Assembly: GCA_016188575.1 (NCBI GenBank)
Contig: JACPHN010000268.1
Coordinates: 916 to 64,915, forward strand
Source: Candidatus Schekmanbacteria bacterium
GTDB taxonomy: Bacteria > CSSED10-310 > JACPHN01
Direction: 5' to 3'
DNA: 64,000 nucleotides
The translations under genes and the position numbers were made by a program. Position 1 is the first letter of the stretch; each line of letters begins with the position of its first letter. Below are positions 8,756 to 56,700 of this stretch, piece by piece. Under the pieces are notes generated by a model. That model saw nothing but the letters and a program-made list of their open reading frames with translations, had not been told where the DNA came from and ran no database searches.

Positions 8756-8785
8756 GGCGACTCCCTTCCTGAATCCACTACTTTC

Positions 8786-12799: not shown

Positions 12800-12802
12800 G
12801 GC

Positions 12803-16014: not shown

Positions 16015-16018
16015 GGTC

Positions 16019-17074: not shown

Positions 17075-17077
17075 TTG

Positions 17078-23632: not shown

Positions 23633-23709
23633 CATAGAAGTGCTTATGGAAGGAACCGCGGCACCTCATACCAGGCGCCCGCTCGGCGGGCAAGCAGGAG
23701 AGGGGAAAA

Positions 23710-33144: not shown

Positions 33145-33198
33145 GCTGTCACTCCGAGGCGCCGTCTTGAGTTGCCGCCGCGCTGTCTGTGACGCGAC

Positions 33199-38108: not shown

Positions 38109-38939
38109 TCACCGCGGCGGGCCATCCGCCTCCGACATCGACAGGATCATCTCGCACCGGGGCGCATAAATAAGCTCGACCGCGTGGCCCAGGCGGAGCG
38201 CGCGGAGCTGTCGCGCCTTGCCGTGCTCGCCCAGGCGCAGCGCGACCCCGCGCGGGAGCCAGGACGTGGCCGAGTCGATCAGGTTTACCTTCAGCTCGGC
38301 GCGCAGGGTGCGCCCGCCCTTGACAGGGTAGCTGGCGAGCTCCATGACGCGAAGCGGCGCGACGTCGCGGGCGCGCGCTGAATGGTGGGCGCGCGCCGGT
38401 AACGACGGGACCGCGAGCGTAAAGAGCTCCGGGCCGCCGCGCTCGTCACCATACACGGTGACGATGAGCTGCCCGCCGCGCTCCTGAAACGCCATGCGCG
38501 CCATGTATTTGGGGACATTCAGGTAATCGATACCGCCCGCCATGGCGACTTCCGAATCTACCGGCAACTGAAAAACGTAGGCCTCATACCGCTCGCTCAG
38601 CACGGAGCGCACGAGGTGCAGCGCGCCGTGAGCCCATGCGTCGCGAGTGTACGAGATGCCGGCCGACAGCGAGACCTCACAGTATGCCCCGAGCTGGGAG
38701 GCGCGGTATTGAAAGCAGTGAATGGCGACGAGCGCGGTTCCCGGCAGCGGCCGCAGCGGGCGATGACGCGGCGTCGGCATCAGCGCCTGCACCGCCGCCG
38801 CGTCCGCGGTAAAAACAACCGCCGTCATGGAGGCATCGTAGTAAAAGAGCGGCGAATAGCCGCGCCACTGCCGAATCGGGATCTCCCGCTGCTCCACGCC
38901 GCGGAAAAACTCGCTTGTTGTGCGCTGCTCCCCGCTCAC
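38109..38939 (-). CDS. Acetoacetate-decarboxylase (ADC) family protein
   Basis: 276-aa protein. Length, a Lys at …PVKGGRTLRAELKVNL… and the overall ADC-like beta-cone pattern. Last gene of the minus-strand ACAD / thiolase / ligase / ADC operon. Confidence 0.55.
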   Translation of the reverse strand: MSGEQRTTSEFFRGVEQREIPIRQWRGYSPLFYYDASMTAVVFTADAAAVQALMPTPRHRPLRPLPGTALVAIHCFQYRASQLGAYCEVSLSAGISYTRDAWAHGALHLVRSVLSERYEAYVFQLPVDSEVAMAGGIDYLNVPKYMARMAFQERGGQLIVTVYGDERGGPELFTLAVPSLPARAHHSARARDVAPLRVMELASYPVKGGRTLRAELKVNLIDSATSWLPRGVALRLGEHGKARQLRALRLGHAVELIYAPRCEMILSMSEADGPPR

Positions 38940-40684
38940 CGTTGCAGGTCCACGGTGCGCGGCGTCACCCCGCGCGCCTTGAGCTCCTCCTTCATGACCC
39001 GGTGGGTGGCGGTCTTCGGCAACGCGTCGACAACCTCGACGTAGCGTGGCAGAGCATATTTTGGCAGGCGGGGTGCGAGAAAGGCGGCGAGCGCCTGGGG
39101 GTCGACGGTGCGCCCCTCGACCGGCACCACACAGACCATGATCTCCTCTTCCGCCAGCTCGCTGGGGACGCCGAACGCGGCGCTCTCGAGCACGTCGGGG
39201 TGGGCATCGACTTCCTTTTCGACCTCGTATGCCGAAACGTTTTCACCGCGGCGGCGCATCGAGTCGGTCCGGCGGCCGACGAAATAGAGAAAGCCGCCGG
39301 CGTCGCGCCGCATGACGTCGCCCGTGCGAAGCCACCCGTCACGCGTCTTGTCTGCGCTCGCCGCCTCGTTCTTGTAGTACGTTACCGGGGCGTCGGCGCT
39401 GCGTGCCGCGTGGAACATCAGCTCGCCGGCCTCGCCCACAGCGGCGTCCGCGCCGCTCGCGGTGACCAGGCGGTAGCGCGCGCCGAACGAGGGCCGGCCA
39501 ATGGAACCTACGGGGGCATTGCCCGCGTTGAAGACCACGAATCCGCCACCATCGACCGCGCCGTACGCTTCCCAGATGCGCACGCCAAAGCGCTCCTCGA
39601 ACGGCCGCCAGGCGTCCGCGGGGCAGGCCGAGCTGATGACCTTCCTGACGCGATGCTCGCGCTCGAAAACGCTCGGGGGCGTCTTCAACAGGATCGGAAT
39701 CATGGCACCCAGAGCGTTGAAGGTCGTCGCTCCGCTTTCGCTCACCTCGCGCCAGAAGCGGGAAGCCCGGAACCGCCGCGCGAGCGCGACCGGAATCCCC
39801 CGCCAGAGCGCTTGCACGACCGTGACCAGCAAGGCGTTGGCGTGAAAAAGCGGCAAACAGGTGTAGATCTTGTCGTCGGGATCGTAGAACACGTGGCTGG
39901 CGAAACCGAGCTTCTTGACTCCGGCACTTCCGGAGCGATAGACCACCGCCTTCGGCAGACCCGTCGTGCCCGAAGTGTACATCAGCAGCGAAGGCGCATG
40001 CGCGTCGGGCCGCGTCCCGAGGTCCGCGTCGCAGCGCTCGCGCCGCTCGAGCTCGGCGTACGGAAGCAAGCGCAGCCGAGCGGAGGGAGGCATCGCCGCC
40101 AGGGATTCGCGATCGCCGCCGCCATCGTCATCCACCACGAACACCGTGAGCGGCCGCGCGAGCCGGTCCGCTATCGCCCGCAGCTTGTCGAGCGCCGGAC
40201 CATCAGCGCCGACAATCGCTACTTCCGAGTGGTTCACGATGTAGGCCAGGCCGTCACCTACGAGGTGCGTGTTGATCGGTACGCAGTAGGCCCCCACTTT
40301 CTGCGAAGCGAAGAAGAGCTCCAGGAAGCTCGGGCGATTATCCATCATGATGGCCACGCCGGCACCGGCCGCGGCGCCGTGCGCCTGCAGGCCGCGCGCG
40401 ACCTGGTTGGCGCGCCGATTCAGCAGGTCAAAGCTCAGGCAATCGCCAGCGAAATCGATAAACGGGTTTCCGCCGAAGCGGCGCGCAGCCCATTCCAGCA
40501 GCTCCGCAAAGGTCCAGTCGCGTGCGAAAGCGAGCGTCCCGCGCCGGCGCGCGGCTGCGAGCGTTGCCCCCAGCTCACCCGCTTGCCACTCCAACCCCAG
40601 ACTGAACGCCGCCGCACCCAAGACGCGGCGCGCCAGCGCCAGATCTCCGAGTCTGTGGGTCAGCGCTGCCGGCAGTCGCGCCAT
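38936..40684 (-). CDS. Long-chain/medium-chain acyl-CoA synthetase (FadD-like AMP-binding enzyme)
   Basis: …LLMYTSGTTGLPKAVVYRS… (AMP-binding motif I), …EAYGAVDGGG…, …GWLRTGDVMRRDAGGFLYFVGRRTDSMRRRGENVS…. Start placed at MARLPAALTH; the ORF begins 34 codons earlier with GTG. Coordinates ±1. Confidence 0.75.
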   Translation of the reverse strand: MARLPAALTHRLGDLALARRVLGAAAFSLGLEWQAGELGATLAAARRRGTLAFARDWTFAELLEWAARRFGGNPFIDFAGDCLSFDLLNRRANQVARGLQAHGAAAGAGVAIMMDNRPSFLELFFASQKVGAYCVPINTHLVGDGLAYIVNHSEVAIVGADGPALDKLRAIADRLARPLTVFVVDDDGGGDRESLAAMPPSARLRLLPYAELERRERCDADLGTRPDAHAPSLLMYTSGTTGLPKAVVYRSGSAGVKKLGFASHVFYDPDDKIYTCLPLFHANALLVTVVQALWRGIPVALARRFRASRFWREVSESGATTFNALGAMIPILLKTPPSVFEREHRVRKVISSACPADAWRPFEERFGVRIWEAYGAVDGGGFVVFNAGNAPVGSIGRPSFGARYRLVTASGADAAVGEAGELMFHAARSADAPVTYYKNEAASADKTRDGWLRTGDVMRRDAGGFLYFVGRRTDSMRRRGENVSAYEVEKEVDAHPDVLESAAFGVPSELAEEEIMVCVVPVEGRTVDPQALAAFLAPRLPKYALPRYVEVVDALPKTATHRVMKEELKARGVTPRTVDLQR

Positions 40685-40861
40685 CTCGCTCTCCTTGGGA
40701 CCCGTAACGAAATAACCGTTGCATTCGGCCGGCTGCGAAGGCCGCCGGCTTCGTCTCTCCTCCTCACCGTATTGCTCCATTGACACGCTTCGTCGTCGTT
40801 CCTCGAAAGCGGCCTTCTCGCTCGGCCTCGGTGCTTGACACAGTGATTTCGCTACGGGTCC

Positions 40862-42293
40862 TCACATCCGGTCAATGATGTGAATGGCCATCGCCGCCTC
40901 CTCCACGCCCAGTGCCCCGCCGCCATTCACCGCCATGCCGATAGTGGCGCCCTCCACTTGTCGCGCACCGGCTTCACCCCGGAGCTGGCACACGAGCTCG
41001 TGGACCTGCGCGAGACCCGAAGCCGCGATGGGATGGCCCCGGCACTCCAGACCCCCGCTCGGGTTCACCGGCCGAGCGCCACCGATGCGCGTGGCTCCGG
41101 ACGCCGCATAAGCCCCCCCTTCACCTTCGCGGCAAAACCCGAGTGTCTCGCATTGGTGGAGCTCGCCAAAGGCTGTCGCGTCGTGCACCTCGGCCACGTC
41201 GATCGCCTCGGGGCCGACGCCGGCCCGCTCATACGCCGCCGCCGCCAGCCGCGCGCTGATGTCCGGCTCCCCATCACCGCGCGCCTTGCCCGATCCAAGC
41301 ACGCTCGCGCGAATCCGCACCGGCCGGGAACCCGAACGCCGCCGCCGCCAGACATTCCGGCTGCAGACCACGACCGCCGCCGCACCGTCGCCGATCGGCG
41401 CGCACATGGCTCGCGTCAACGGAAAACTGACCGGCCGATCCGCCAGGACCTCCTGCACCGTCAGCGGAAACCGATACTGCGCCAACGGGTTGTGAACGCT
41501 GTGCTCATGGTTCTTGGCCGCGACCGCGGCGAGCTGCTCGATGGTCGTTCCGTAGCGCTTCATGTGGCGGCGCGCGTTGAGCGAGTACACATCCATGAAG
41601 GGGCTCTGATCGCCAGCGCCGCGGCTCGCGAACGCCTTCCGCATCGACCACAGGCGCTCCCAGCCGAAGGTGTGGCCGATCGTGACGAGGTCCTGCGCGA
41701 GCTGCAGCGCGTCGTTTGCGGCGCGCGTCGCGGTGCGCAGCGCGAGCACGTCGCGCCAGGATTGGGCCGGCGGGGACACCGGGCGCCGATTTCCCGGATG
41801 TGCGACTGTCCAGTCCGCGGGAAACGCCGCCGGTATCCCGAGCTCCCGCTCCGCTTCGAGGTAGCGCGCGAGCGAGGCCGGAAGGTCGGCGACGTCGAGC
41901 CCGCCCAGGAAACCGGCAAACATGAAAAGCCGATTCGGTGAGTAGATCTTCTCCGCGCCCACCGCCAGGGCGACTTCGTACTGGCCCGCGGCGACTCCCA
42001 TCCACGCCCCATGCAGGGCGGTGGAACCACCTGCGCACGCGTTCTCCACGTTGACGATGGGGATCGTGTCGATGCCGGCGGCGCGCAACGCGACCTGGCC
42101 GCGAATGCAGAGCTGCCCGTCGCTGCGCCCCCAGTTGCTGTTCGCGAACCACGCGGCCTGCACGTCCTCACGCGCCAACCCGGCGTCGCGAAGGGCGTTG
42201 TCGACGACCTCCGCCGTCATGTCCTTGATCGTGCGCTGCGGATACTTCGCAAACCGCAGCATCTGGCTGCCCGCGATCAGTGCTTCCCTCACG
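40862..42293 (-). CDS. Thiolase-family protein (SCP-x / lipid-transfer-protein-type thiolase)
   Basis: …IVNVENACAGGSTAL… (active-site Cys) and C-terminal …CRGHPIAASGLAQVHELVCQLRGEAG…. Start chosen at GTG 42293 (VREALIAGS…) with GGAGG 9 nt upstream; ATG at 42262 is the alternative. The upstream 130 codons of the ORF are noise. Confidence 0.7.
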
Positions 42294-43740
42294 GCTCCCG
42301 CGCCTCCATCGCAAACAGCCCCCTGAAGACGTGCAGTCGGTTCACTTCGTTGGTTCCCTCGTAGATTTGCGTCAGCTTGGCATCCCGCAGGCATTTTTCG
42401 ACGCCCCAGGCCGGCTCGCAGGCATCCTCGCCGAGGATTCGCATCGCGGCACGGCAGATGTCCATGGCCAGGTCGCTGCACGTTTGCTTCGCCAGAGAAG
42501 CGAGGCCGAGCACAAAATCCAGCTCCCTTTCCGGCACGGCGTGGGCGAGCCACGCGCGCATGGCGCCGGTGACGAGGCGCGACGATAACGCTCCGCGCAG
42601 CGGCGAGGCACGGAGCAGCGGGCGGGGCACGGCCGCCATGGCGTCCTGGAGTCGCGGGCTCAAAGCTTTCATGAAGCCGCACGATTCCACGGCCATGGCG
42701 GCGTCAAAATAGAGCTGCCTGCCGCTCTGGAGCTTGCCGATCATGTCGGCGAGCGCGAGCTGCACCCACTGGGCCTCGAACCGCCACCGGCCGTTTTCCC
42801 TCTTCTCCGCCAGGTAGGCGAGAGCTCGTTCGATCGCGCCCCGGGCGATGCCCATCGCGATCGCGCCGACCGGGCCGCGCGTCATGGACAAGGCGTGTTT
42901 GACGAGCGGGATCGGGCTGCCCTTGCCGCCCAGGCAGTCCGAGAAGGGGACGAAGAGATCGTCGAACACGAGCTCGGCAGCAGGACAGAGGCGTTGTCCG
43001 AGCTTGTGCTCGATGCGCCCTACCGAGAATCCGGCGGCATTGGTGGGCACCACGAACTGGATCGTGCTTTCCACGGGGCGGGACGGATCGGTAATGGCCG
43101 AGGCCCAGGCGTAGCGGGCGATGCTGCCATTGGAGATGAACACCTTGCGGCCGGTAACGCGATAGCCGCCCGGGACCTCGCGGGCGACCGTGCGCAGCCG
43201 CGCGGAATGGATATGCACCTCATCCTCGATGTCGCTACCGGCCTCCGGTTCCGTGTAGGCGAGCGCGAAGATGACGGGGGTGCCGGCGCGTTCACCGTCT
43301 GCGATTTCGGCAAGGTGGCGATAGAACCAGTCCAGCTCGAGACTGTAGATCAGTGGCACGATGCCGAGGTTGTGAGCGCCAAAGATGTTGGCGATGCCGG
43401 CGTCGGCCGCGCATAGCTCCTCCATCATGAAGGCCACGGCGGGGAGCCGCTGGCCCAGGCCGCCAAAGGCGCGCGGGATCACCGCACTGAGAAAGCGGTA
43501 GGGGAGCGCGCCGCGGATCGCTTCCCAGGCGACGAAGGTGTGGTCGTCGCCGGCGCGGCGATCCCAGTCGGCCGCGTACGGGCGCACGTGCTCGTCGCTG
43601 AAGCGTCGCGCCGCGGCTTGTAGCCGCGCGCACTGATCGATGAGCTCCGGATCCCCTTTCGCGAGGCCGGCGGCACGCGGAAAGGCGCGCGGGAGCTCGT
43701 GCAGGATCGGGCTATAGACGTGCGGTGCGGAAGTCCCCAC
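42289..43740 (-). CDS. Acyl-CoA dehydrogenase with an ~80-aa N-terminal extension
   Basis: …FALAYTEPEAGSDIEDEVHIHSARL… (ACAD middle-domain motif), C-terminal …QIYEGTNEVNRLHVFRGL…. GTG start at 43740 has a textbook SD (GGAGG-N5-GTG); the in-frame ATG 43788 lacks one. Confidence 0.75.
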   Translation of the reverse strand: MGTSAPHVYSPILHELPRAFPRAAGLAKGDPELIDQCARLQAAARRFSDEHVRPYAADWDRRAGDDHTFVAWEAIRGALPYRFLSAVIPRAFGGLGQRLPAVAFMMEELCAADAGIANIFGAHNLGIVPLIYSLELDWFYRHLAEIADGERAGTPVIFALAYTEPEAGSDIEDEVHIHSARLRTVAREVPGGYRVTGRKVFISNGSIARYAWASAITDPSRPVESTIQFVVPTNAAGFSVGRIEHKLGQRLCPAAELVFDDLFVPFSDCLGGKGSPIPLVKHALSMTRGPVGAIAMGIARGAIERALAYLAEKRENGRWRFEAQWVQLALADMIGKLQSGRQLYFDAAMAVESCGFMKALSPRLQDAMAAVPRPLLRASPLRGALSSRLVTGAMRAWLAHAVPERELDFVLGLASLAKQTCSDLAMDICRAAMRILGEDACEPAWGVEKCLRDAKLTQIYEGTNEVNRLHVFRGLFAMEAREP

Positions 43741-43947
43741 GAGAGCCTCCTGGTGATGCGGGCGAGCGGGCGGCGTGACGCAGAGCATCGTAGCAGCCCG
43801 CCGCGCCGCGGTCAACCGCCGCCATGAAGTGTGCGGCGCCACGGGGCGGCCCGGGTCTTGCTTACTTCGCTCGGGTCCCAGTTTGCACCGTGGGCGGTAT
43901 AAAGGAGTAGATACTGGGAATTCAGGAGCACGCGGGAGGATCGCACC

Positions 43948-44868
43948 ATGGATTCGTCCTGTGGACCCCTCGTTTTCGGTGAAGCGCTGTATGACAGCTT
44001 CCCTGACGGCAGCGCGGTGTTGGGCGGCGCGCCATTCAACGTCGCCTGGCACTTGCAGGGGTTCGGGCTGGCACCCTTGTTCATCACCCGCGTCGGCCGT
44101 GATGAGCTGGGCGAGCGAATGATCGCGGCGATGCGCGCCTGGGGAATGGACACGCGCGGTGTACAGACGGACCCGCGCCACCCCACGGGCAGCGTTGCGG
44201 TCAGCTTCCGAGGCCACGAGCCGAGCTTCTCGATCGTGCCCGAGCAAGCCTACGATTTCATCGACGGCGAGCTCGCGGCGGCGCTCATGCAGGACGGTAG
44301 CCCCGGGCTGCTCTACCATGGCAGTCTCATTGCCCGACATTCTGCCTCGCGTGACGCCCTGGCGAGGCTGCGCTCAGCAGGGCTCTCTGTTTTCCTCGAC
44401 GTCAATCTTCGCGCTCCGTGGTGGCAACGACCCTGGCTCGACGACGCCTTGCGAAGCGCTCGCTGGGGGAAAGTCAACGAGCACGAGCTGCGGGTGCTGG
44501 CCGCGCCTGACGCGACCGGCGACGATGGCGACGACGGCGACGACGACGTGTCGGCCCGCGGCCAGCGCCTGCGCCGAGAATACGGCCTGGAGCTGCTGGT
44601 GGTAACGCGCGGCGCCGCAGGCGCGCTGCTCCTGACCGCTGCCGGCGCGACCGCTGCGGCGCCCCACGACACCGCCGCGATCGTCGACACCGTAGGGGCC
44701 GGCGATGCCTTCAGCGCGGTGACGATACTCGGACTCTTGCGTGGCTGGTCGTTGCCACAGATGGCGGTGCGGGCCGTGGAGCTCGCCGGGGCGGTATGCC
44801 GCATGCGCGGCGCCACGGGTCACGACCGCGCGCTCTATCAGAAACACTTACTGAGGTGGGCAACATGA
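43948..44868 (+). CDS. PfkB-family carbohydrate kinase, probable fructokinase
   Basis: …LVFGEALYD…GGAPFNVAWHL… N-terminus and C-terminal …DTVGAGDAFSAVTILGLL… (PfkB signature 2). Contains a GDDGDDGDDD acidic insert. The stop overlaps the sps ATG (ATGA). Confidence 0.7.
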   Translation: MDSSCGPLVFGEALYDSFPDGSAVLGGAPFNVAWHLQGFGLAPLFITRVGRDELGERMIAAMRAWGMDTRGVQTDPRHPTGSVAVSFRGHEPSFSIVPEQAYDFIDGELAAALMQDGSPGLLYHGSLIARHSASRDALARLRSAGLSVFLDVNLRAPWWQRPWLDDALRSARWGKVNEHELRVLAAPDATGDDGDDGDDDVSARGQRLRREYGLELLVVTRGAAGALLLTAAGATAAAPHDTAAIVDTVGAGDAFSAVTILGLLRGWSLPQMAVRAVELAGAVCRMRGATGHDRALYQKHLLRWAT

Positions 44869-47135
44869 CCGCTTCCCCTGACTCCACCGCCACTTCGCCT
44901 GCAAGCTGCGCGGAAAGCGCATCACGAACACCCCCCACCTCTCCTTCCCCCGCCAGCGGCGGGAGGGACGGAGCGGGGCTTTCCACTTCCGATGCCGGCT
45001 TGTACCTGATGCTTCTCAGCATCCACGGACTGATCCGCGGCCATGACCTGGAGCTCGGCCGCGATGCGGACACCGGCGGGCAAACCAAATACGTCGTCGA
45101 GCTGACCCGGGCGCTCGCTGCGCATCCCCGCATCTGGCGCGTAGATCTGCTGACGCGGCTCATTGACGACCCGCGGGTCGACGACGACTATTCGAGCGAG
45201 CAAGAACCCGTAGCGGAAAATGCCTTCATCACACGCATCCCCTGTGGCCCGCGCCGCTATCTCCGCAAGGAAACCCTGTGGACCTATCTTGACGGCTTTG
45301 CCGACAACGCCCTGCTCCACATCCGCCGCGTGGGCAGACTGCCGGATGTGATCCACAGCCACTATGCCGACGCCGGCTACGTCGGAGCTCGGCTCGCAGG
45401 TCTCCTCGGCGTGCCGCTGGTTCACACCGGGCACTCGCTCGGAAGAGAGAAAAAGAGACGCCTGCTCGTGCAGGGTATGGATGCGGAGGAGATCGAAAAG
45501 ACGTACAACATGTCGCAACGTATCGAGGCCGAGGAGCTCGCCATGGACAATGCTGCCATGGTGATCGCCAGCACGACGCAAGAAGTCGAGAAGCAATACA
45601 GCGTATACGACAACTATCAGCCGCAAAGCATGGTGGTGATTCCGCCAGGTGTTGCCTTGGACCGCTTCTATCCCCCGCGCCGTGGCTGGTTCGCCACTCC
45701 GGATCCTCTGGAGCTCGGGCGCTTCTTGCGCGAGCCGCGCAGGCCCATGATCCTGGCGCTCGCTCGGCCCGACGAACGCAAGAACATCGCTACGTTGCTA
45801 CACGCCTACGGCCAGCACCCCCGCCTGCAGCGCGCCGCGAATCTGGTGCTGATCGCCGGCATCCGCGACGACATCAGCGCCATGGAGAGGGGACCGCGCG
45901 CCGTGCTCAACGAGATCCTCTTGTTGATCGACCGCTACGACCTCTATGGCCGCGTGGCATGCCCCAAGCACCATCATGCCGATGATGTGCCGCTCCTGTA
46001 CCGCCTGGCAGCCAAGCGCGGCGGCATCTTCGTCAATCCCGCGCTCACCGAGCCTTTCGGCCTGACCCTGATTGAGGCCGCGGCAAGCGGGCTTCCCATC
46101 GTAGCCACGGAGGACGGGGGCCCGCGCGACATCATCGCGCACTGCCGAAACGGCGTGCTGATCGATCCCCTGGATCACGCGCGCCTGGGCGACGTGCTCT
46201 ATGCGGCCATCAGCAATCGCCGCCAATGGCGCCGCTGGGCCAAGAATGGCGTCGCCGGCGCCCACAGGCGTTTCTCGTGGAGCAGCCACGTCAGCCGATA
46301 CCTGTCCGAGGTGGAAAAGTTGATGAAGAAATGGCGACGCAAGCGCCCGGCGGCGGCGCCCAGGAGCAAGTTGCCAACCCTGACGAGGATCCTGATCACG
46401 GATATCGACAACACGCTGATCGGCGACCGCGCAGCGCTACAGACGCTGCTCGAGAGGATGCGTAGGCACGGCGAAAAACTCGGTTTCGGTGTCGCTACCG
46501 GGCGACGCCTCGAAAGTGTCGCCCGCGTCCTCAAGGAATGGGACGTGCCGACTCCGGACGTGCTGATTACCTCGGTGGGCACCGAGATTCACTACGGCAA
46601 GCGCCTGGAGCCGGATCTGGGCTATCAGGACCACCTGGAATACCGTTGGGCTCCGCAGGCGCTCCCGGAAGTGCTGAATGAGCTCCCGGGCTTGCGCTTG
46701 CAGGCCGCCGTGGAACAGCGACGGTTCAAGGTCAGCTTTCTTCTGGATCCCGGGAAGGCACCCAGCGTGCGGGTGATCAAGAAGCAGTTGCGGCGGCATG
46801 GCATACATGCCACCGTGGTATTGTCTAACGGCATTTATCTTGACGTCATTCCGGTGCGCGCCTCCAAGGGTAAGGCGATACGATATATAGCCAATAAGTG
46901 GGGGATTCCAATAGATAGTATTCTTGTTGCAGGTGATTCCGGAAATGATGAAGAAATGCTGACAGGGAATACCCTCGGCGTCGTCGTTGGCAACCATTGC
47001 GAGGAGCTGAAGGTCCTGCGCGGCCAAGAGCGCGTTTACTTCGCCCGCGGTCAATATGCGCTGGGTATTCTGGAAGGAGTAGAGTTTTATAACTTCTTTG
47101 ATGACATTAACAGTATCCATGAAAGTGTCGGATAG
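44865..47135 (+). CDS. sps: Sucrose-phosphate synthase with fused C-terminal sucrose-phosphatase-like (HAD) domain
   Basis: 756-aa protein. Its GT-B domain (…[29 protein letters not shown]…, …[30 protein letters not shown]…) is followed by …[13 protein letters not shown]… (HAD DxDxT) and …[12 protein letters not shown]…. Confidence 0.85.
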
Positions 47136-47136
47136 T

Positions 47137-49533
47137 ATGAACGAAGACCTTAGTTTATGTATGGATGAGCACAGAGAGGTTGTTTATCTGCTTTTGCGTC
47201 GCTATTCGTCACTCGGACGACCCTTCCTGTTGCGATCTGAATTGTGGGACCAGTTTTCCGCGTTTTGTCAGGAAAACGATCTGGAGGCCCTGCTCGATTC
47301 CGCCCTTGCCGACACCATACGCAGCGTCCAGGAGGCGGCCGTGGCCGCCCCGTGGGTCTATTTTGCCAGTCGGCGACACGTGGCTCGCTGGCGGTACTTT
47401 CGCATCCATGCGGAATCGCCCCAGTTGGAAGCGATCTCGGCGTCGGAGTATCTGCGCTTCAAGGAGCAGCTCGTCACCGGCGGTGGGCCGGAACCGTGGG
47501 TGCTGGAATTCGACATTGGGCCCTTCAACCGCGAGTTTCCCAAGCTCCAGGAGGCGCGCTCCATCGGCCGCGGTGTCGAGTTCCTCAATCGCCACCTCTC
47601 CAGCCAGCTTTTTCAGGAACTGGGCAAGGGAGATCAGCTCCTGCTCGATTTCTTGCGTCTGCACCAATGCCAGGGCCAGCAACTCATGCTCAGTGGCCGG
47701 ATCAAGGAGCTGGCCGAGCTGCGGCGGTGTTTGCGCGAGGCGGATGACTATCTGGCGCGCAAACCTGGCGAGGCCGGTTGGGACCTCGTGGGGCCGGAGC
47801 TGCAGCGCCTGGGTTTGGAGCCGGGCTGGGGCCGAACCGCCGCGCGCATGCGCGATACCCTCGGCCTGCTGTCCGATATCCTCGAGGCACCCGAGCCGGG
47901 GACCCTGGGGCGCTTCTTGGGTCGGATACCGATGATCTTTAGCGTGGTCATCCTTTCGCCACACGGCTACTTTGGACAGGCCAACGTCCTGGGGCTGCCG
48001 GACACGGGTGGACAGGTCGTCTACATTCTCGATCAGGTGCGCGCTCTGGAGCATGAGATGCGCACGCGGCTCCATGAACAAGGTCTGGGTATCGAACCGC
48101 GGATCCTGGTCGTGACCCGTCTGATCCCGGAGGCACCGCCGGGAAGCACCTGCAATCAACGTGTGGAGAGCATCGCGGGAACGCAGGGCGCGCTGATCTT
48201 GCGGATTCCGTTTCGTGGCCCTGGCGGGGAAGTAATTCCCCACTGGCTTTCGCGCTTCGATTTGTGGCCGTATCTGGAGCGGTACAGCCGCGAAGTCGAA
48301 AGGGAGGTCGTCGCGGAGTTGCGCGGGCGCCCCGATCTCATCGTCGGTAACTATTCCGACGGCAATCTCGTGGCAACCTTGCTCGCACAGCGCCTGCACG
48401 TGACGCAGTGCAATATCGCTCACGCCTTGGAGAAGACCAAATACCTCATGTCGGACCTGTATTGGCGTGACAACGATCCGCAATACCACTTCGGCTGCCA
48501 GTTCACCGCCGACCTCATTGCCATGAACGCCGCCGATTTCATCATTACGAGCACCTATCAAGAAATCGCAGGCCACCGTGACAGCATGGGACAGTATGAG
48601 AGTTACGGTGTTTTCACTCTGCCCGGTCTGTATCGCGTCGTGAATGGCATGGATCCTTTCGAACCGAAGTTCAACATCGTCTCGCCCGGCGCGGACGCAC
48701 AGGTCTATTTCCCATACACGGAGTCGGAGCGACGCCTGAGCAGGCTGCATGACGAAATCAGAGCGATCCTGTATCAGCCCGACCTCCCCGGCGCCCGCGG
48801 CGCCTTGCGAGACCCCGGCAAGCCCCTCCTGTTCACCATGGCTCGTCTCGACCGGATCAAGAACATCACGGGGCTGGTAGAGTGGTATGGCCGGAGCCGG
48901 CAGCTTCGCGACCGCGCCAACCTGTTGGTGGTCGCGGGCCACATCGATCCCGGAAGCTCGACGGATGCCGAAGAGCAACAGCAGATCGCGCGCATGCACG
49001 AGCTTATGGATCAGTATCACCTCGACGCCGAGCTGCGCTGGCTCGGAGCGCGTCTGGAAAGGAATGTCACTGGCGAGCTATATCGATACGTCGCCGATGG
49101 CCGCGGCGCTTTTGTGCAGCCGGCCTTGTTCGAGGCCTTTGGTCTGACCGTGGTCGAAGCGATGACCTCGGGGCTGCCGACGTTCGCAACGGTATACGGC
49201 GGCCCACTCGAGATCATCGAAGATGGGGTGTCGGGGTTTCATATCGATCCCAACCACGGCGATCGTGCGGCCCAGCGCATGGCGGAATTTCTTGATCGCT
49301 GCACCGTGGAACCCGATTATTGGGAGAGGATCTCGACGGGTGCGATGGAGCGGGTGGCGGCGCGTTACACCTGGAAGCTCTACGCGGAACGTATCATGAC
49401 CTTGTCGCGCATCTACGGGTACTGGAAGTACGTGACTGATTTGGAGCGGGACGAGACGCGGCGTTACCTGGAGATGTTCTACGGCTTGCAGTTCCGGCCC
49501 CTGGCCGAAAAGATCAGGGAGGAGGCGCGATAA
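47137..49533 (+). CDS. sus: Sucrose synthase (NDP-glucose:fructose glucosyltransferase)
   Basis: ~800-aa protein with the SuS N-terminal regulatory/CTD region (…VVYLLLRRY…) and a GT-B core (…[35 protein letters not shown]…, …[33 protein letters not shown]…). ATG 47137 lies 2 nt after the sps stop; ATG 47119 is an alternative. Confidence 0.85.
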
Positions 49534-49657
49534 AGCGGCTGTGGGCTGAGCACCCGACTCCCGTGAGCACGCGGCGCGGGTTTCGAATCCGCCGCCAATG
49601 CGCTAAACTGCGGCATCTTGTCGGTGCGCGCGGAAAACCTCGAGGGGAGACGATAAC

Positions 49658-50455
49658 GTGTCGTATGCAACCGCTTTTGCTAACAAGGTCGCGCTCGTAA
49701 CGGGCGCTTCCTCGGGAATCGGTCGCGAGCTGTCGCTGCGGTTGGGCCGGGCGGGCGCCCGCATCGGGCTCCTGGCGCGCAGCGCGGACAAGCTCGCGGC
49801 AGCTCGCGATGCCATCGACGGCGGCGAGAACGTGCTGCTCTTGCCCGCCGACGTCGCCGACGAGGCGGCCTGCCGGGACGCCGTGGACAGGCTTGCCGCG
49901 ACCTTCGGCGGCATCGATCTGGTCATCAATAACGCCGGGCTCTCCATGTACGCACCGTTCGCGGAGACGGAGACCGCGGTCTTTCATCGGCTCATGGACG
50001 TGAACTATTTCGGCTCGCTCTACATCGCGAAGCGCGCCTATCCCCATTTGTTGCGCAGCAAGGGCAGCATGGTGTTCGTGTCGAGTGTTGTCGGCAAGCG
50101 CGGTTTCCCGACGCGGAGCGGCTACTCTGCGGCGAAGTTCGCGGTCCACGGTCTGTTCGAATGCTTGCGAACGGAATGGGCGGCCACCGGGATCCATGTG
50201 GGCATCGTCGCTCCCGGTTTCACCGACACCGGGATTCGCGCCGCGGCCCTATCCGCCGATGGCACCATCCGGGGTGAGGACAGCAAGATCCGGGGATCGG
50301 CCATGTCCGCCGCAGACGCCGCGGAGGCCATTCTCGAGGCCGCTGCCCGGCGCCGGCGGGAGGTAGTCTTGACGCCTGCCGGAACTTTCATGGTGTGGCT
50401 GAACAAGCTGCTGCCGGGGCTGGCAGATCGGCTCGCCGCGCGCGCCATCGGCTGA
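49658..50455 (+). CDS. Short-chain dehydrogenase/reductase (SDR)
   Basis: GTG start with GGGGAG 8 nt upstream. …VALVTGASSGIGREL…, …NNAG…, …YSAAKFAVHGLFECL… (YxxxK). Confidence 0.75.
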   Translation: MSYATAFANKVALVTGASSGIGRELSLRLGRAGARIGLLARSADKLAAARDAIDGGENVLLLPADVADEAACRDAVDRLAATFGGIDLVINNAGLSMYAPFAETETAVFHRLMDVNYFGSLYIAKRAYPHLLRSKGSMVFVSSVVGKRGFPTRSGYSAAKFAVHGLFECLRTEWAATGIHVGIVAPGFTDTGIRAAALSADGTIRGEDSKIRGSAMSAADAAEAILEAAARRRREVVLTPAGTFMVWLNKLLPGLADRLAARAIG

Positions 50456-50515
50456 CCGCCTGCCCAAGCAGCGCGGCTGCCTTGGGAACGTGGACGTAAC
50501 CTGTTGGAGGGAACA

Positions 50516-51523
50516 ATGCGCGTTTTCATGACGGGTGGCACCGGGTTTCTCGGAAAAGCCGTGACGACTCGCCTCATCGCGGCCGGGCACGAGGTCACGC
50601 TGCTGTGCCTTCCCCGGGAATCGGTCGCCGCGCGCGCCGGGCTGCACCTCGTCACCGGAGACATCACGCGCCCGGACACGCTCGTGGGCCTGTTCGCCGA
50701 CCACGACGCCGTGGTGCACCTCGCGGGGGCGGTTGGGTATGGGCAGAAAATGAGCGTCTGTCTGGCGGTGAATCGCGACGGCACCCGCAACGTCGCCGCC
50801 GCCGCCGTGGCCGCGGGGACCCGGCGCTTCATTCACCTGAGCTCGGTGTCAGTCTACGGCCGTGTGGCCGGCGTCCCGATTACGGAGAACGCGCCGCGCC
50901 TGCGCACGGGGGAACCCTACGGCGATACCAAGATCGACGCCGAGGAGGTGCTCGAGGACTTTGTCGCGCGGGGCGAGCTCGCGGTAACCATGCTGCGCCC
51001 GACGGTGATCTATGGGCCGGGCGACGAGAAGTTTCTCCCGAAGCTCGCGCAAAACCTGCTTTCGGGCAAGGCGCGGATCATCGGGGACGGCGACAACTCG
51101 GTGGACCTCATTCACGTCGACGACGTGGCGCTCATCGTCGAGCAGCTCCTGAGGCGCGAGGATACGATTGGCGCCGTATTCAATGTCACCAATCCGGACA
51201 ACTGCACCTGGCGCGAGCTGCTGGCCGCGGTGGCGGACGAGCTCGGCGTGTCGCCGCCGCGTACCCGGCTTCCGTACGGCGCGGCGTTGATCGTCGCCGG
51301 CGCCCTGGAATGGATCGCCGCGATCCGCGGTAAGGAGCCGGCGCTCACGCGCTATGCCGTGCGCGTCATCGGGCGGCAGTACTATTATGTGGTCGATCGC
51401 CTGCAGCGCGATCTCGGGTTCGTCCCTTGTGTCGAGGTGCGCGACGGCGTTCGGGAGTGCGTGCGCGAGCTTGCGGCGGCCGGCCGGTTGCAGCCCGGAA
51501 CGCGAGCGCGCCGGGCTCGGTGA
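50516..51523 (+). CDS. NAD-dependent epimerase/dehydratase (extended SDR, 3-beta-HSD-like)
   Basis: MRVFMTGGTGFLGKAV… (GxxGxxG), …YGDTKIDAE… (YxxxK). ATG 50516 with GGAGGG 5 nt upstream. Confidence 0.75.
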   Translation: MRVFMTGGTGFLGKAVTTRLIAAGHEVTLLCLPRESVAARAGLHLVTGDITRPDTLVGLFADHDAVVHLAGAVGYGQKMSVCLAVNRDGTRNVAAAAVAAGTRRFIHLSSVSVYGRVAGVPITENAPRLRTGEPYGDTKIDAEEVLEDFVARGELAVTMLRPTVIYGPGDEKFLPKLAQNLLSGKARIIGDGDNSVDLIHVDDVALIVEQLLRREDTIGAVFNVTNPDNCTWRELLAAVADELGVSPPRTRLPYGAALIVAGALEWIAAIRGKEPALTRYAVRVIGRQYYYVVDRLQRDLGFVPCVEVRDGVRECVRELAAAGRLQPGTRARRAR

Positions 51524-51560
51524 GCACGCTCCAGCAGGAAAGCGAGCTACACAGAAAACC

Positions 51561-52427
51561 ATGAGACCACAAAAGAATACCGTGACCAGGCAGTTCATGA
51601 CCTGGTTTTTCAAGTACCCTCACAATCCCTATGTGTCGTGCTCGGTGTCGCTTGATTTCGGTTCGGCGCAGGCCTACTTGCGGTCGCTGAACGACGACGA
51701 TGCTCGCCCTCGGGTCTCCATCCAGCACTTGCTGACCGCTGCAGTCGCGCGCGTGTACCGCGAGTTTCCCGCGGCCAACGCGACGATCATCGGCTCGCGA
51801 ATCTACCGGCACGAGCACGTGGGCGTGGCGATGCCGGTTAACATGCTCGAGACAGGCGGCTCCTTGGGCCTGGAGACGAGCCTGATCTTCGTCGAACGGG
51901 TGGACTGTCTCAGCCTGCGGGGGCTGGCGCTGGCGACGCAGGAACGCGTGGCGTCGCTGCGCGATGGCGAGGGGAAAAGCAACGTGTGGCGCAACCTCGC
52001 ACCCCTGGTGGGAAAGCTCCCCGACGCCGTGATCCACGCGACTCTGGATGCTTTTGAGGCGATCTGCACCATCCCGTTCGTCGGCGAAGCGGTGCACCGT
52101 TCACTGCCCATCACCGTGGCCGTGTCCAACCCGGGCGCGGCGTTTTCGATGCCGGCGGGTGGCGCCTTTCGAGCCGCCTCGTTTGCACCCCCCAATCGAC
52201 TGTTCGCGGTCGGCTCGGTGCTCGGCGTGTCCGCGCTGCAGGATGAAGTGGTTCCGATCGCTGGCCGTCCCGAGGTGCGAACCATGTTGCCGCTCATCTA
52301 TGTTTTCGACCACCGGCTGTTCGACGGGGTGATGTGTGCCCGCATCCTCAATCGCCTGGGCACGGTGTTGCTCTCGCCGGAGGACTGCTTCGGCCCCGCT
52401 GGTGACGATGGCGGAGCGGCGGCATGA
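51561..52427 (+). CDS. Stand-alone 2-oxoacid-dehydrogenase-E2-type acyltransferase catalytic domain (CAT-like fold), no lipoyl or E1/E3-binding domains
   Basis: 288-aa protein ending …LIYVFDHRLFDGVMCARILNRL…. DHRxxDG is the catalytic His-Asp motif of E2 / chloramphenicol-acetyltransferase-like enzymes. Confidence 0.5.
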   Translation: MRPQKNTVTRQFMTWFFKYPHNPYVSCSVSLDFGSAQAYLRSLNDDDARPRVSIQHLLTAAVARVYREFPAANATIIGSRIYRHEHVGVAMPVNMLETGGSLGLETSLIFVERVDCLSLRGLALATQERVASLRDGEGKSNVWRNLAPLVGKLPDAVIHATLDAFEAICTIPFVGEAVHRSLPITVAVSNPGAAFSMPAGGAFRAASFAPPNRLFAVGSVLGVSALQDEVVPIAGRPEVRTMLPLIYVFDHRLFDGVMCARILNRLGTVLLSPEDCFGPAGDDGGAAA

Positions 52428-52717
52428 GTGACGAAGAGGAGCGGCGCACGCGACGCCAGGAGCTTACGGACTACCTCCGCCACGGCCCGACGCCGCTGCG
52501 CGAGCTGGCGGCGGCCATCAAGGCCGGACTGCGGGAAACCGTCGAGGAGTTGGAGCACGTCGCTCGTAGCCTCCGCCCGGAACGGATCAACATCCAGGCG
52601 GCAAGCTGCCAGACCTGCGACTTTGTGTTTCGCGAACGGCGCCGCTTCACTACCCCGAGCCGGTGTCCGCTCTGCAAATCCCAGCGCATCAACGAACCAC
52701 TATTCTGGCTGGAGTAG
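52424..52717 (+). CDS. Small protein (97 aa) with a C-terminal C-x2-C…C-x2-C zinc ribbon
   Basis: ATGA overlap with the preceding gene. …ASCQTCDFVF…(12 aa)…RCPLCKSQRI…. Confidence 0.45.
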   Translation: MSDEEERRTRRQELTDYLRHGPTPLRELAAAIKAGLRETVEELEHVARSLRPERINIQAASCQTCDFVFRERRRFTTPSRCPLCKSQRINEPLFWLE

Positions 52718-52767
52718 ACCCGCAGGTACTCGCGTGCCGGCCCCCGTGCACCGCGGGTATCTTCTCC

Positions 52768-54414
52768 TCACAGCACGCGCCCGATCTCGGCCAGCGACGT
52801 CGTGCCGCTGGCAATCTTCGCCAGGCCGTCCTCGAGCAGCGTCAGCATCCCCTGTGCCCGTGCAGTTTCGTGAAGCTGCGAGGTTGTCACCTTGGAGATG
52901 ATCTGATCGCGAAACGAATCGTCCACGGTGAGCACCTCGAAAAGCGCCGTCCTGCCGCGATAGCCGATGCCGCCGCACTGGTGGCAACCCACCGGGCCGA
53001 GAAATCGCATGGGGCTGTCGGCGGGAATCCCCAACTGGCGCAACAGAGAGAGCGGCGGAATCTCCTCCGCCTTGCAAGCGCTGCACAGGACGCGCACGAG
53101 CCGCTGGGAGACAATTGCCAGCACCGACGAGGCGAGCAGGAAAGGCTCGATCCCCATCTGCAGCAGGCGGGTGATGACTCCCGCGGCACTGTCGGCGTGA
53201 ATGCTCGTGTAGAGCAAGTGTCCGGTCAGACCGGCCTGGGTGGCGATTTGCGCCGTCTCCAGGTCGCGAATCTCGCCAACCATGATGACATCGGGATCCT
53301 GGCGCAGGATCGTGCGCAGCCCGCGAGCAAACGTCAGCCCTTTTGCGACGTTTACTTGCGTCTGGTTGAAGATGCCGAGATCCATCTCGATTGGATCCTC
53401 GATGGTCACGATGTTGACCGTCTTGTTGCGGACCTCCCAGGTCCGGCGCATGGCGGCGTAGATTGTGGTCGTCTTGCCGCTGCCGGTAGGACCCGTGAGG
53501 ATAATCATGCCTTGGGGCCGGCGCACCAGTTGCTCGGCCGCGGCCAACGCCGGACCGTTCATGCCGAGCTCGGGCAGGGCGAGAACCCGGTCGGCAGTGG
53601 CCTCGAACAGTCTGAGCACACCTTTTTCGCCGTGCAGCGTGGGCAGCAAGGAGACGCGGACGTCGTATTCCTTGGCGCCGACCGCAGCGGACATACGCCC
53701 GTCTTGCGGGACGTCGCGCTGGTAGACGGTGAGGTGGGAAAGCACCTTGATGCGGCTGATGAGCCTGCCATAGAGCTCGTCGGGGATCCGGCAAACGTCG
53801 TGTAGCAGGCCATCGACGCGGAACTTCAGAGTGTGGGCGTTTTCACCGGGCTCGAAGTGGATGTCGCGGGCGGCCGCCTTGTCCCCTGACGCAAAGACCC
53901 GGTCGAGGATGGGCGAGACCTCGACCTCGGCGTCCTTGGCCTCGGCCGCGGCCCGGCGCAGCAGTGGCCTGAGGTTGGTCGCCGCTTCCTGTGGAGACAT
54001 GCGGAGAACGGCGCCCGGCAGGTCGCGCGCGGCAGCGGGTGCGGTCCCTCGCGAAGGGCGGCTCGAGGCAACCGTCTGGTCGGCGGCCAGCGCCGTGGGA
54101 TCGTTTTCCATGCCGTGCTCGGCAGCGGCAAGCGCCGCGGCTCTCTTCTGCCGCAACTGGCGTTGCTCCTCCGAAACCGTCCGGCGCGCGCGAAAATCGC
54201 TCGCATAGGCCGTTCCGACCTTCGCTCCGATGACGAGGAGCAGGAGAAGCGACAGCACGGCGATCACGACCGGGCGGCGCAGCAGGCTCCAGACGACGTC
54301 GAGTGCCTCGGGCAGCAGATCCGGCGCGACGGCGGCCAGGAATGAGAGTGTAAACGATCCGACGATCGCGACGAGAACAGCGGTATTGATCGACGTGGCG
54401 GTATCTCTGCCCAT
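52768..54414 (-). CDS. GspE/PilB-family secretion-type ATPase with two N-terminal transmembrane helices (orphan)
   Basis: ATPase core …GMIILTGPTGSGKTTTIYA… (Walker A), …DPDVIMVGEIRDLETAQIA… (Walker B / Asp box), …GHLLYTSIHA… (His box) and a C-terminal tetra-Cys motif (CSAC…CHQC). The N-terminus (MGRDTATSINTAVLVAIVGSFTLSFLAAV…VVIAVLSLLLLLVIGA) predicts 2 TM helices. Start at ATG 54414; upstream ORF codons rejected. Confidence 0.8.
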   Translation of the reverse strand: MGRDTATSINTAVLVAIVGSFTLSFLAAVAPDLLPEALDVVWSLLRRPVVIAVLSLLLLLVIGAKVGTAYASDFRARRTVSEEQRQLRQKRAAALAAAEHGMENDPTALAADQTVASSRPSRGTAPAAARDLPGAVLRMSPQEAATNLRPLLRRAAAEAKDAEVEVSPILDRVFASGDKAAARDIHFEPGENAHTLKFRVDGLLHDVCRIPDELYGRLISRIKVLSHLTVYQRDVPQDGRMSAAVGAKEYDVRVSLLPTLHGEKGVLRLFEATADRVLALPELGMNGPALAAAEQLVRRPQGMIILTGPTGSGKTTTIYAAMRRTWEVRNKTVNIVTIEDPIEMDLGIFNQTQVNVAKGLTFARGLRTILRQDPDVIMVGEIRDLETAQIATQAGLTGHLLYTSIHADSAAGVITRLLQMGIEPFLLASSVLAIVSQRLVRVLCSACKAEEIPPLSLLRQLGIPADSPMRFLGPVGCHQCGGIGYRGRTALFEVLTVDDSFRDQIISKVTTSQLHETARAQGMLTLLEDGLAKIASGTTSLAEIGRVL

Positions 54415-54569
54415 GCTCTTTGCGAAACCCGTGGGCTCCTCTCTATGCTTGCGTGTACCTGGTGGTCCGCTTCTGGCTCGGCACCGGGAAGGATCGCCGG
54501 CAAGGAGTCGCCAGCGATCATACCAATCGTGCGCACGCAGGGTCAAGATCAACCTCGGACTCGGAACGA

Positions 54570-55285
54570 CACCAAAGTCGCGCCGCGGTTGCCCCGGGCT
54601 TTGGCCCTGGGGCGGACGCGGCTCTTCTCTTGCACTGGATGACCGCGCACGGTATAGTTGGGCCGATGCGCTTCGATCTCGAGTACAAGTCCAACCTGAA
54701 TGTCGTTTTCTCCTGCAAGTACCATGTCGTGTGGTGCCCGAAGTACCGTCGCAGTGTCCTCGTAGGCGGAGTTGATAGCAGGCTGAAGGAAATTATCTCC
54801 GAGGTTATCCAGGAGTGCCGCGCCGAGCTTTTCGAGCTCGAGGTCATGGCCGATCACGTCCAACTTCTTGTCGAGGTCGATCCTCAGTTCGGCATCCATA
54901 CCCTCGTCAAGCGCATCAAAGGGAGATCCTCGCGGTTGCTTCGTCAAGAATTCCCATGGTTGCGCAGCCGCCTGCCCAGCCTCTGGACCCATAGCTATTT
55001 CGTCTCGACCGTCGGCGGCGCTCCGCTCGCCGTGATCAAGCAGTACGTCGAGAACCAGAAAAACGTCTGATTCATGGCAAACAGCCGCGGCCCCAGCTTT
55101 ATCCTCCAGCTCGACCTCGCGACCACCGCAAGAGCCGGAGAAGAGCTGTACAAGCGCGTCGAGCAAGCTGCACGCAACCCTGCAACGCCTGTCTCGGCGA
55201 AGCCTTGCGCCGTCTTGGGTTGCGCGATCAGTCGCGCGACTTTCCGTTTAGAACCCCCCGGCTTTGACCGCGGGGAGGCTCAGCG
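54570..55285 (+). mobile_element. IS200-like insertion sequence (IS200/IS605 family, tnpA only), ~0.7 kb, with similar subterminal hairpins at both ends
   Basis: Left-end hairpin gccccgggctttggccctggggc (54591-54613) and right-end hairpin ccccccggctttgaccgcgggg (55255-55276) share a GGCTTTG loop region. The Y1 transposase lies between. Size matches IS200 (~707 bp). Boundaries are approximate. Confidence 0.6.
54666..55070 (+). CDS. tnpA: IS200/IS605-family Y1 (HUH) transposase TnpA
   Basis: 134-aa protein with …DHVQLLVEV… (HuH motif) and …SLWTHSYFVSTVGGAP… (catalytic Tyr region). Typical Y1_Tnp length. Confidence 0.85.
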   Translation: MRFDLEYKSNLNVVFSCKYHVVWCPKYRRSVLVGGVDSRLKEIISEVIQECRAELFELEVMADHVQLLVEVDPQFGIHTLVKRIKGRSSRLLRQEFPWLRSRLPSLWTHSYFVSTVGGAPLAVIKQYVENQKNV

Positions 55286-56685: not shown

Positions 56686-56700
56686 GCGAGCACGCCGCCG

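Follow-up and report, generated by a model that had tools for sequence, protein, structure and literature searches.

A compact frk-sps-sus sucrose gene cluster, most likely acquired from a gammaproteobacterium, in an uncultivated bacterium of high GC content

The cluster of sucrose genes described here lies at 43948-49533 of a 64,000-nucleotide stretch of DNA (hereafter the window; positions 916 to 64,915 of contig JACPHN010000268.1, GenBank assembly GCA_016188575.1) that carries the label Candidatus Schekmanbacteria. It consists of frk (for a sugar kinase of the PfkB family), sps (for a two-domain sucrose-phosphate synthase, SPS) and sus (for a full-length sucrose synthase, SuS). Taken together, the evidence makes it probable that these genes are a self-contained, horizontally acquired sucrose module, with which the cell would build up sucrose as a solute and recycle it to ADP-glucose and glycogen. 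Modules of this type were first described in Nitrosomonas europaea and are common in sulfur- and ammonia-oxidising Pseudomonadota; a three-gene cluster for making and recycling sucrose is an already known type, ordinary apart from its transfer, and what is new in this instance is only its host and a well-bounded transfer between lineages.

The three open reading frames had been named from the letters alone, and family models bear these identities out. They adjoin one another on the same strand, with stop and start codons that overlap or abut (Table 1). The ATG of frk is preceded by a GGGAGGA Shine-Dalgarno sequence, and a second, independent gene call gave the same 306-residue product; the ATG of sps and the TGA of frk share the letters ATGA, an overlap of 4 nt, and between the TAG of sps (47133-47135) and the ATG of sus (47137-47139) there is a spacer of 1 nt, where 2 nt had been claimed. 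The 4-nt overlap and the 1-nt spacer favour translational coupling, and the spacing suggests that all three genes are co-transcribed. The tight arrangement is conserved in relatives: the overlap of the frk stop with the sps start is common to most related frk-sps-sus loci, and because the start codon lies at the same place in most of them, the overlap evidently came with the module. The window has a mean GC content of 67.1%, slightly below the 70% put forward earlier for what is indeed a non-cyanobacterial genome, and the cluster ranges from 61 to 68%. The activities given below for the three proteins are predicted from their sequences.

Sucrose synthase proved far more widespread than the sequence-only reading supposed, which held it to be rare outside cyanobacteria and a few proteobacteria. 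At a threshold of E<=1e-50, more than 7,300 protein clusters match the window SuS, the best being 66-80% identical and the named ones among these nearly all from Gammaproteobacteria, and when one genome of each GTDB species was scanned, SuS turned up in at least 588 bacterial species genomes from many phyla. The best 80 of these at least 588 loci belong mostly to Gammaproteobacteria (Chromatiales, Thiohalomonadaceae, Thiohalobacter, Ectothiorhodospira and Thioalkalivibrio), with several from Betaproteobacteria (Nitrosomonas, Thiobacillus and Gallionellaceae) and single metagenome-assembled genomes labelled Desulfobulbaceae, Spirochaetota, Planctomycetota, Calditrichaceae, Acidobacteriota, Omnitrophota or Verrucomicrobiota. 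In a comparison of 81 loci with up to 8 kb of flanking DNA, the genes are adjacent in the order frk-sps-sus in 26, and a further arrangement, sps-X-frk-sus, in which X is a stand-alone sucrose-6-phosphate phosphatase (S6PP) gene, occurs in 19; all three are present, in whatever arrangement, in at least 49.

The window SuS scores 1171.1 bits against the TIGR02470 equivalog model (cutoff 810.4), with residues 16-795 of its 798 covered, and matches the Pfam model GT-B_Sucrose_synth as well as SUS_N (PF24861; 101.6 bits, residues 1-110) and SUS_EPBD (PF24862, the EPBD/SSN-2 domain; 94.6 bits, residues 145-233). Neither generic GT4 enzymes nor SPS possess the SUS_N and EPBD domains; the protein, which has both, is a full-length SuS and not the generic GT4 glycosyltransferase lacking them that might have been feared. 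It shares the architecture of SUS_N, EPBD and GT-B with the SuS of N. europaea, to which it aligns end to end (PDB 4RBN; 1050 bits, both N-terminal domains aligned from residue 4), and scores 936 bits against A. thaliana SUS1. The catalytic His, the Arg/Lys pair and the E-X7-E motif, all reportedly important for function, are H429, R570, K575, E666 and E674, invariant in an alignment with nine relatives and aligned with the N. europaea SuS; of these, R570, K575 and E666 correspond to the reported R567, K572 and E663 of the N. europaea enzyme. At the nucleotide site, L640 and N643 align with L637 and T640 of the A. caldus sucrose synthase (SuSy) and are the same residues, Leu and Asn, as in the N. 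europaea SuS, which reportedly prefers ADP-glucose as well. The A. caldus enzyme has a Km of 0.3 mM for ADP versus 7.8 mM for UDP, and in its L637M-T640V mutant the preference moves toward UDP (PMC11169191). From these residues, the nucleoside diphosphate used by the window SuS is probably ADP.

The SPS passes the curated cutoffs of both models that describe its halves, TIGR02472 for the glucosyltransferase domain (686.3 bits, cutoff 576) and TIGR02471 for the bacterial domain resembling sucrose-phosphate phosphatase (SPP; 310.4 bits, cutoff 209.75), and scores 272.7 bits against Pfam S6PP; among its relatives of solved structure are the H. orenii SPS (2R60) and the Synechocystis SPP (1S2O). 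When aligned to 1S2O, all four HAD motifs are intact, namely DIDNT (D513, D515 and T517), ATGR (T545), SKG (K668) and GDSGND (D691 and D695), such that every catalytic motif whose retention had been in question is there and the SPS is of the bifunctional type. The glucosyltransferase-phosphohydrolase fusion is shared with cyanobacterial SPS, of which the two-domain forms with intact residues are bifunctional and the Synechocystis type is not (PMC4390843); the intact set predicts bifunctionality as in Synechococcus elongatus PCC 7942 (PMC4390843), unlike the SPS of Synechocystis PCC 6803, whose phosphatase domain is inactive. The window SPS is therefore likely, by its motifs, to perform both the synthase and the phosphatase step.

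The same conclusion is suggested by the related loci. The full HAD catalytic set is kept in 24 of 29 SPS proteins from frk-sps-sus loci without a separate SPP gene, the window's being one, and the motif I Thr and the first Asp of motif IV are lost (DLDQN, GGSGAD) in 11 of 11 from loci with a separate S6PP gene between sps and frk. Because the motifs persist where there is no SPP gene and decay where there is one, the fused domain would be a working phosphatase wherever no separate one exists, and its decay looks like what followed once a separate SPP had taken over. Clusters of the sps-spp-frk-sus kind, such as those of Thiogranum (L042), Thiobacillus (L060) and Gallionellaceae (L070), have the same enzymes and overall pathway and differ in their separate S6PP gene and degraded fused domain, whereas the window's is of the intact-fusion type. 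The degenerate fused domain (DLDQN, GGSGAD) was seen at loci L034, L038, L042, L047-L050, L055, L058, L060, L061, L067, L070, L075, L076 and L079. Among these, the stand-alone S6PP gene was Pfam-confirmed in L042 alone (6239-7093; 151 bits), and the gene order of L034, L050, L058, L061 and L075 was classed as "other", a separate SPP gene not having been shown in these five.

The kinase matches PfkB (PF00294) with 126.9 bits, and its best relative of solved structure is 2QHP, deposited as a fructokinase (94 bits), with which its GAGD anion-hole and catalytic Asp motif (DTVGAGDAF) aligns. In at least 49 of the 81 loci a kinase accompanies sps, sus or both, and the kinase at the same position in L001 is 60-61% identical to the window's. 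It is called a putative fructokinase because of this conserved linkage with sps and sus and because its best structural match bears that name.

What the sequence-only reading missed is that the cluster was most likely acquired horizontally from Gammaproteobacteria. Its nearest relatives are two loci of uncultivated Gammaproteobacteria, L001 (in a 3.0 Mb genome, ENA ERZ25039495) and L002 ("Biocath_Gamma_008", labelled Gammaproteobacteria). The window's Frk, SPS and SuS are 60%, 74% and 79% identical to those of L001, and the corresponding values for L001 versus L002 are 65%, 72% and 79%; the window's sucrose genes are thus as near L001 as are those of a confamilial gammaproteobacterium, and its GlmS is not, with 50% identity to that of L001 as against 86% between L001 and L002 (UvrD and MscS, which are not in the window, are 78% and 72% identical between those two loci). 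DNA similarity to the L001 locus starts at 43964 and ends at 49505, with 71% identity over 43964-44816 and an unbroken 75.6% over 45003-49505, and outside the three genes the sole DNA match to L001 is a 170-bp piece within glmS near 14.5 kb. The GC fraction is 0.62 in sps (0.565 in its phosphatase domain), 0.61 in sus and a host-like 0.68 in frk, compared with 0.67-0.69 in the flanking genes and 0.59 in L001. Lastly, in a neighbour-joining tree of 82 SuS sequences (50 bootstraps), rooted on a cyanobacterial plasmid SuS that is 39% identical, the window protein groups as the sister of L001 in all 50, with L002 branching next, inside a 33-taxon clade otherwise labelled Gammaproteobacteria. A phylogeny against cyanobacterial and proteobacterial sequences had been proposed as a check, and for SuS it places the window protein among the Gammaproteobacteria-labelled sequences, with the cyanobacterial plasmid protein at the root.

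The host markers tell of a different ancestry. The acyl-CoA dehydrogenase and GlmS of the window each have a match of 100% identity under the name Candidatus Schekmanbacteria bacterium, that of the dehydrogenase (P0121) being full-length and confirming its start codon; an exact-sequence look-up gave no record of the window SuS, although neighbouring proteins of the contig are recorded. For the acyl-CoA dehydrogenase encoded beside the cluster, the next best match is 59% identical and the rest are 42-50% identical (named matches: Myxococcales, Polyangiaceae and Hydrogenedentes); for GlmS, the next best is 63% identical, and the named matches are Terriglobia. As judged from these proteins, the host clearly has no close kin among sampled genomes. 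Because the identities, the GC shift, the confined DNA similarity and the SuS tree all disagree with the host markers, a horizontal origin is indicated, and the module was most likely taken whole from a gammaproteobacterium of the sulfur-oxidiser type near the L001/L002 lineage. The frk-sps-sus loci of uncultivated Gammaproteobacteria, including L001, L002 and relatives among the Chromatiales, Thiohalomonadaceae and Thiohalobacter, resemble the window's in gene order, orientation, 4-nt overlap and intact HAD motifs; L001 and L002 differ in having glmS upstream and an MscS channel gene and uvrD downstream, none of which context is found around the cluster in the window. In L001 (MscS gene at 12424-13341) and L002, MscS follows sus within 28-45 bp and glmS stands just upstream of frk, an arrangement that fits an osmotic-stress neighbourhood. 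MscS was considered as a conserved partner of sus and set aside, as it lies directly downstream in only 3 of 71 loci.

A cluster that differs from its flanks in both GC content and best-match taxonomy might also be an artefact of assembly or binning, with gammaproteobacterial DNA spliced onto the contig of another organism. A separate assembly of run SRR12113422 bears on this directly: contig L082 equals window positions 40815-44922 and contig L083 equals 48589-53841, both at 100% identity, the first carrying the thiolase and acyl-CoA dehydrogenase genes, frk and the first 58 nt of sps, and the second the last 945 nt of sus followed by the SDR (short-chain dehydrogenase/reductase), epimerase, acyltransferase, Zn-ribbon and T2SSE genes. 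Each boundary of the cluster is thus crossed, without a mismatch, by a contig assembled independently from this run, although both contigs break inside the cluster. Together with the host-like GC of frk and a high-GC N-terminal insertion in SPS that was not seen in other loci, these crossings make an artefactual origin very improbable. As for the breaks themselves, the conserved sucrose genes of co-occurring Gammaproteobacteria may tangle the assembly graph.

Several points weigh against the reading of the cluster as an acquired module of ADP-directed sucrose recycling. The interior of the cluster, 44923-48588, lies outside both independent contigs, which break at 44922 and 48589. No mobile-element signature, integrase, tRNA or flanking repeat marks the insertion. 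The taxonomy of the host rests on two proteins and the NCBI label, and the window's glmS lies in an exopolysaccharide (EPS) locus and could itself be a xenolog; moreover, the label Candidatus Schekmanbacteria looks doubtful for a window of 67% GC, since named Schekmanbacteria carry 38-48 in their names (read as %GC). On the functional side, the kinase reaches no curated fructokinase cutoff (NF006957, 82 bits versus 450), and the ADP preference of SuS is extrapolated from two residues together with the preference that Wu et al. 2015 reportedly found for the N. europaea enzyme. Simple scans upstream of frk and after sus gave no promoter or terminator, the counts being near shuffled expectation.

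Further traces of the insertion were sought at its edges. The direct and inverted repeats shared by the two intergenic regions amount to a single 10-mer, consistent with chance. A T-arm-like sequence at the right boundary (GGGTTTCGAATCC, near 49575) was considered as a tRNA remnant and rejected; because ARAGORN found no tRNA there and Rfam none even at E<=10, GGGTTTCGAATCC is better read as a GC-rich hairpin. That hairpin, at about 49570-49602, is without a T-run, and the fold of the spacer, with a z-score of 0.30, is not significant and no better than shuffles. A plasmid vehicle found no support, as only one plasmid in PLSDB encodes SuS, the cyanobacterial one that is 39% identical. An empty site was not recovered either, the nearest homologues of the acyl-CoA dehydrogenase gene lying on short or non-syntenic contigs. 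At the left boundary, the acyl-CoA dehydrogenase gene is divergent from frk and outside the sucrose module; the promoter of frk is presumably located in 43741-43947, where no sigma-70-like site showed up on the + strand in a consensus scan. A search of 42-53 kb with Rfam at gathering score gave no riboswitch or other RNA family.

The following mechanism is proposed. The module would have been inserted between the divergent acyl-CoA dehydrogenase gene and the SDR gene of a high-GC uncultivated host, and a single transcript, starting in the divergent intergenic region ahead of frk, would cover its three genes. The glucosyltransferase domain of SPS would join NDP-glucose (NDP, nucleoside diphosphate) and fructose-6-phosphate into sucrose-6-phosphate, and the fused HAD domain would dephosphorylate this to sucrose, making the synthesis irreversible. 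When the solute is unneeded or carbon is redirected, SuS would convert sucrose and a nucleoside diphosphate, probably ADP, reversibly into NDP-glucose and fructose, and the PfkB kinase would return the fructose to fructose-6-phosphate. The cell could thereby store sucrose as a compatible solute and later draw it down without carbon loss, most likely into an ADP-glucose and glycogen pool. That sucrose serves here as a compatible solute and is re-mobilised had already been proposed, and published work on the N. europaea operon (PMC6284046, PMC4390843), from which an osmoprotective role would follow by analogy, is in keeping with this. In N. europaea, where SuS is encoded with the PfkB kinase and SPS in one operon (PMC6284046), SuS is up 2.7-fold at high salinity (PMC6284046), and the genes have been treated as one osmolyte-related operon through which sucrose is made at the right time (PMC6284046, citing Diricks et al. 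2015); in cyanobacteria, SuS supplies ADP-glucose for glycogen (PMC4390843).

It is conceivable, albeit rather unlikely, that SuS is mainly synthetic here, acting not as a degradative arm but as a second way, inducible by salt, of making sucrose from ADP-glucose and fructose. The SuS reaction is freely reversible, and in N. europaea at high salinity the rise in SuS is accompanied by a fall of the PfkB kinase by about half (PMC6284046). However, cyanobacterial SuS acts in cleavage in vivo (PMC4390843), the conserved linkage to a kinase that recycles fructose is easier to reconcile with cleavage, and SPS with its intact SPP domain is already an irreversible synthetic route. SuS and a fructokinase would also be enough to channel external sucrose into metabolism, but we regard a catabolic operon of that sort as highly unlikely, given that no sucrose transporter, porin or regulator was found in or adjoining the cluster, that catabolism has no use for an SPS whose phosphatase domain is intact and that the same trio is typical of autotrophs (Nitrosomonas and sulfur oxidisers).

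Beyond the points already made, the cluster may be set beside two better known systems. The sps and sus genes are also adjacent in the Nitrosomonas eutropha locus L081. Identity to the N. europaea system (Wu et al. 2015, J Bacteriol 197:2734; Diricks et al. 2015, Appl Microbiol Biotechnol 99:8465) is only about 60-65% and the window host is not a proteobacterium; unlike the N. europaea cluster, the window's looks to be a foreign insert of recent date, with an SPS that bears an additional N-terminal tail rich in Pro, Ser and Thr. Cyanobacteria likewise have a sucrose cycle tied to ADP-glucose and glycogen. The one cyanobacterial SuS that was compared, from a Pseudanabaena plasmid, is the 39% identical protein used as root, and cyanobacterial sucrose genes are usually scattered (PMC4390843), whereas those of the window are clustered.

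The tail of SPS comprises some 45 residues of low complexity, rich in Pro, Ser, Thr and Ala, with about 37 codons that relatives lack. The conserved S.HGL motif lies 50 codons from the frk stop in the window; among 25 related frk-sps-sus loci the distance is 9-24 codons in 24 and a single codon in L003, and the alignment of the L001 SPS to the window begins only at 44979. Between the ATG at 44865, which has a GAGGTG Shine-Dalgarno sequence, and a TTG at 45000 there is no other in-frame start. The tail may be a host-specific addition made after transfer. A bolder idea, that a deeply branching high-GC host captured a complete gammaproteobacterial sucrose cycle and then added a disordered SPS tail as a possible phosphorylation handle for its own Ser/Thr kinases, is a long shot; were it true, the tail would echo the phospho-regulation of plant SPS, which likewise works through N-terminal extensions. 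A Ser/Thr kinase of 797 aa is encoded at 30805-33198 of the window.

The genes that follow sus had been suggested to belong to the same unit. The first of them is an SDR oxidoreductase gene, assigned by family models; the epimerase resembles OleD/HpnA and scores 154 bits, below cutoff, against the 2-alkyl-3-oxoalkanoate reductase model. In the 81 loci, no SDR or acyltransferase homologue was found next to sus, and the sole epimerase match is weak, lying in L029 at 23% identity, 3.5 kb away and on the opposite strand. With this linkage absent, a gap of 124 nt after sus and host-like GC (65-68.5% in the downstream group versus 61% in sus), the suggestion does not hold, and the SDR, epimerase and acyltransferase genes are host genes that merely adjoin the insertion. 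The host genes around the insert (38936-43740 on the - strand and 49658-52717 on the + strand) look like one lipid- or acyl-CoA-related neighbourhood, of which the left side (38936-43740) encodes an AMP-ligase, a thiolase-like protein and the acyl-CoA dehydrogenase. About 7 kb downstream of sus, a GalT-like protein of the UDP-glucose--hexose-1-phosphate uridylyltransferase family (below cutoffs) is encoded at 56686-57693, and between the two lie genes for a T2SSE-type ATPase (52768-54792, - strand) and a TPR protein.

It had also been suggested that the sucrose would feed the large EPS locus of the window. If so, the cluster would mainly re-mobilise sucrose to NDP-glucose for that locus and form a unit with the SDR, epimerase and acyltransferase genes, which we consider improbable. 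There is an EPS-type locus in the window, SuS can in principle yield UDP-glucose, and in cyanobacteria a connection between SuS and the formation of insoluble polysaccharide has been described (PMC4390843). Yet the locus ends more than 21 kb upstream of the cluster, with about 15 unrelated genes between (24-43 kb), and its GlmS, deacetylase, aminotransferase and PgaC-like GT2 suggest a chemistry of amino sugars; the sucrose module, foreign to the host and of different origin, travels alone in dozens of genomes, without those three downstream genes at its side in the 81 loci; and its SuS has nucleotide-site residues that match ADP-preferring enzymes. Because of these ADP-type residues, and because ADP-glucose feeds glycogen as proposed for cyanobacteria (PMC4390843), the product of SuS would go more toward glycogen than toward EPS. 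The polysaccharide biosynthesis locus itself occupies about 1-22 kb of the window, and all of its NCBIfam matches are below curated cutoffs.

Table 1. Positions of the sucrose genes, their flanks and the polysaccharide locus in the window
Feature	Position	Strand	Size	Remarks
frk, PfkB-family sugar kinase, putative fructokinase	43948-44868	+	306 aa	
sps, two-domain sucrose-phosphate synthase	44865-47135	+	756 aa	
SPS N-terminal extension	44865-45002	+	~45 aa	
SPS GT-B glucosyltransferase domain	residues ~46-483 of 756			
SPS HAD-IIB sucrose-phosphatase domain	residues 509-744 of 756			
sus, full-length sucrose synthase	47137-49533	+	798 aa	
Acyl-CoA dehydrogenase	42289-43740	-	483 aa	Host flank; GTG start after AGGAGG; Pfam Acyl-CoA_dh N, M and C
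Divergent intergenic region, acyl-CoA dehydrogenase/frk	43741-43947		207 bp	Left boundary of module
Intergenic region, sus/SDR	49534-49657		124 bp	Right boundary of module
SDR oxidoreductase	49658-50455	+		Host flank; first gene of downstream group
Epimerase-family reductase, OleD/HpnA-like	50516-51523	+		
2-oxoacid_dh-like acyltransferase	51597-52427	+		
Zn-ribbon protein, PF0610-type	52424-52717	+		
Polysacc_synt_3 flippase	2062-3699			EPS locus
Polysaccharide deacetylase	6255-7580			EPS locus
Acetyltransf_6/FemAB-like protein	7541-9178			EPS locus
Acetyltransf_6/FemAB-like protein	10173-11576			EPS locus
DegT aminotransferase				EPS locus
GT2, PgaC-like				EPS locus
GlmS	14164-16029			EPS locus
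CofD	16019-17077			EPS locus
XrtA-like chain-length determinant/tyrosine kinase fusion	18159-20333			EPS locus
Sigma-54 activator	23638-24747			

As a gene cluster, frk-sps-sus of the window adds little, as the module, its enzymes and its probable osmoprotective role have been described before and one SuS of the clade has a crystal structure. The comparison of loci does offer a candidate rule for annotation, by which the fused phosphatase of SPS keeps its catalytic residues where there is no separate SPP gene and loses them where there is one. Above all, if the acquisition is as read here, the window would provide a clean, well-bounded case of a whole module for sucrose synthesis and recycling moving between phyla, and transfer of the module in this manner would help to explain the presence of sucrose metabolism in many non-phototrophic lineages.

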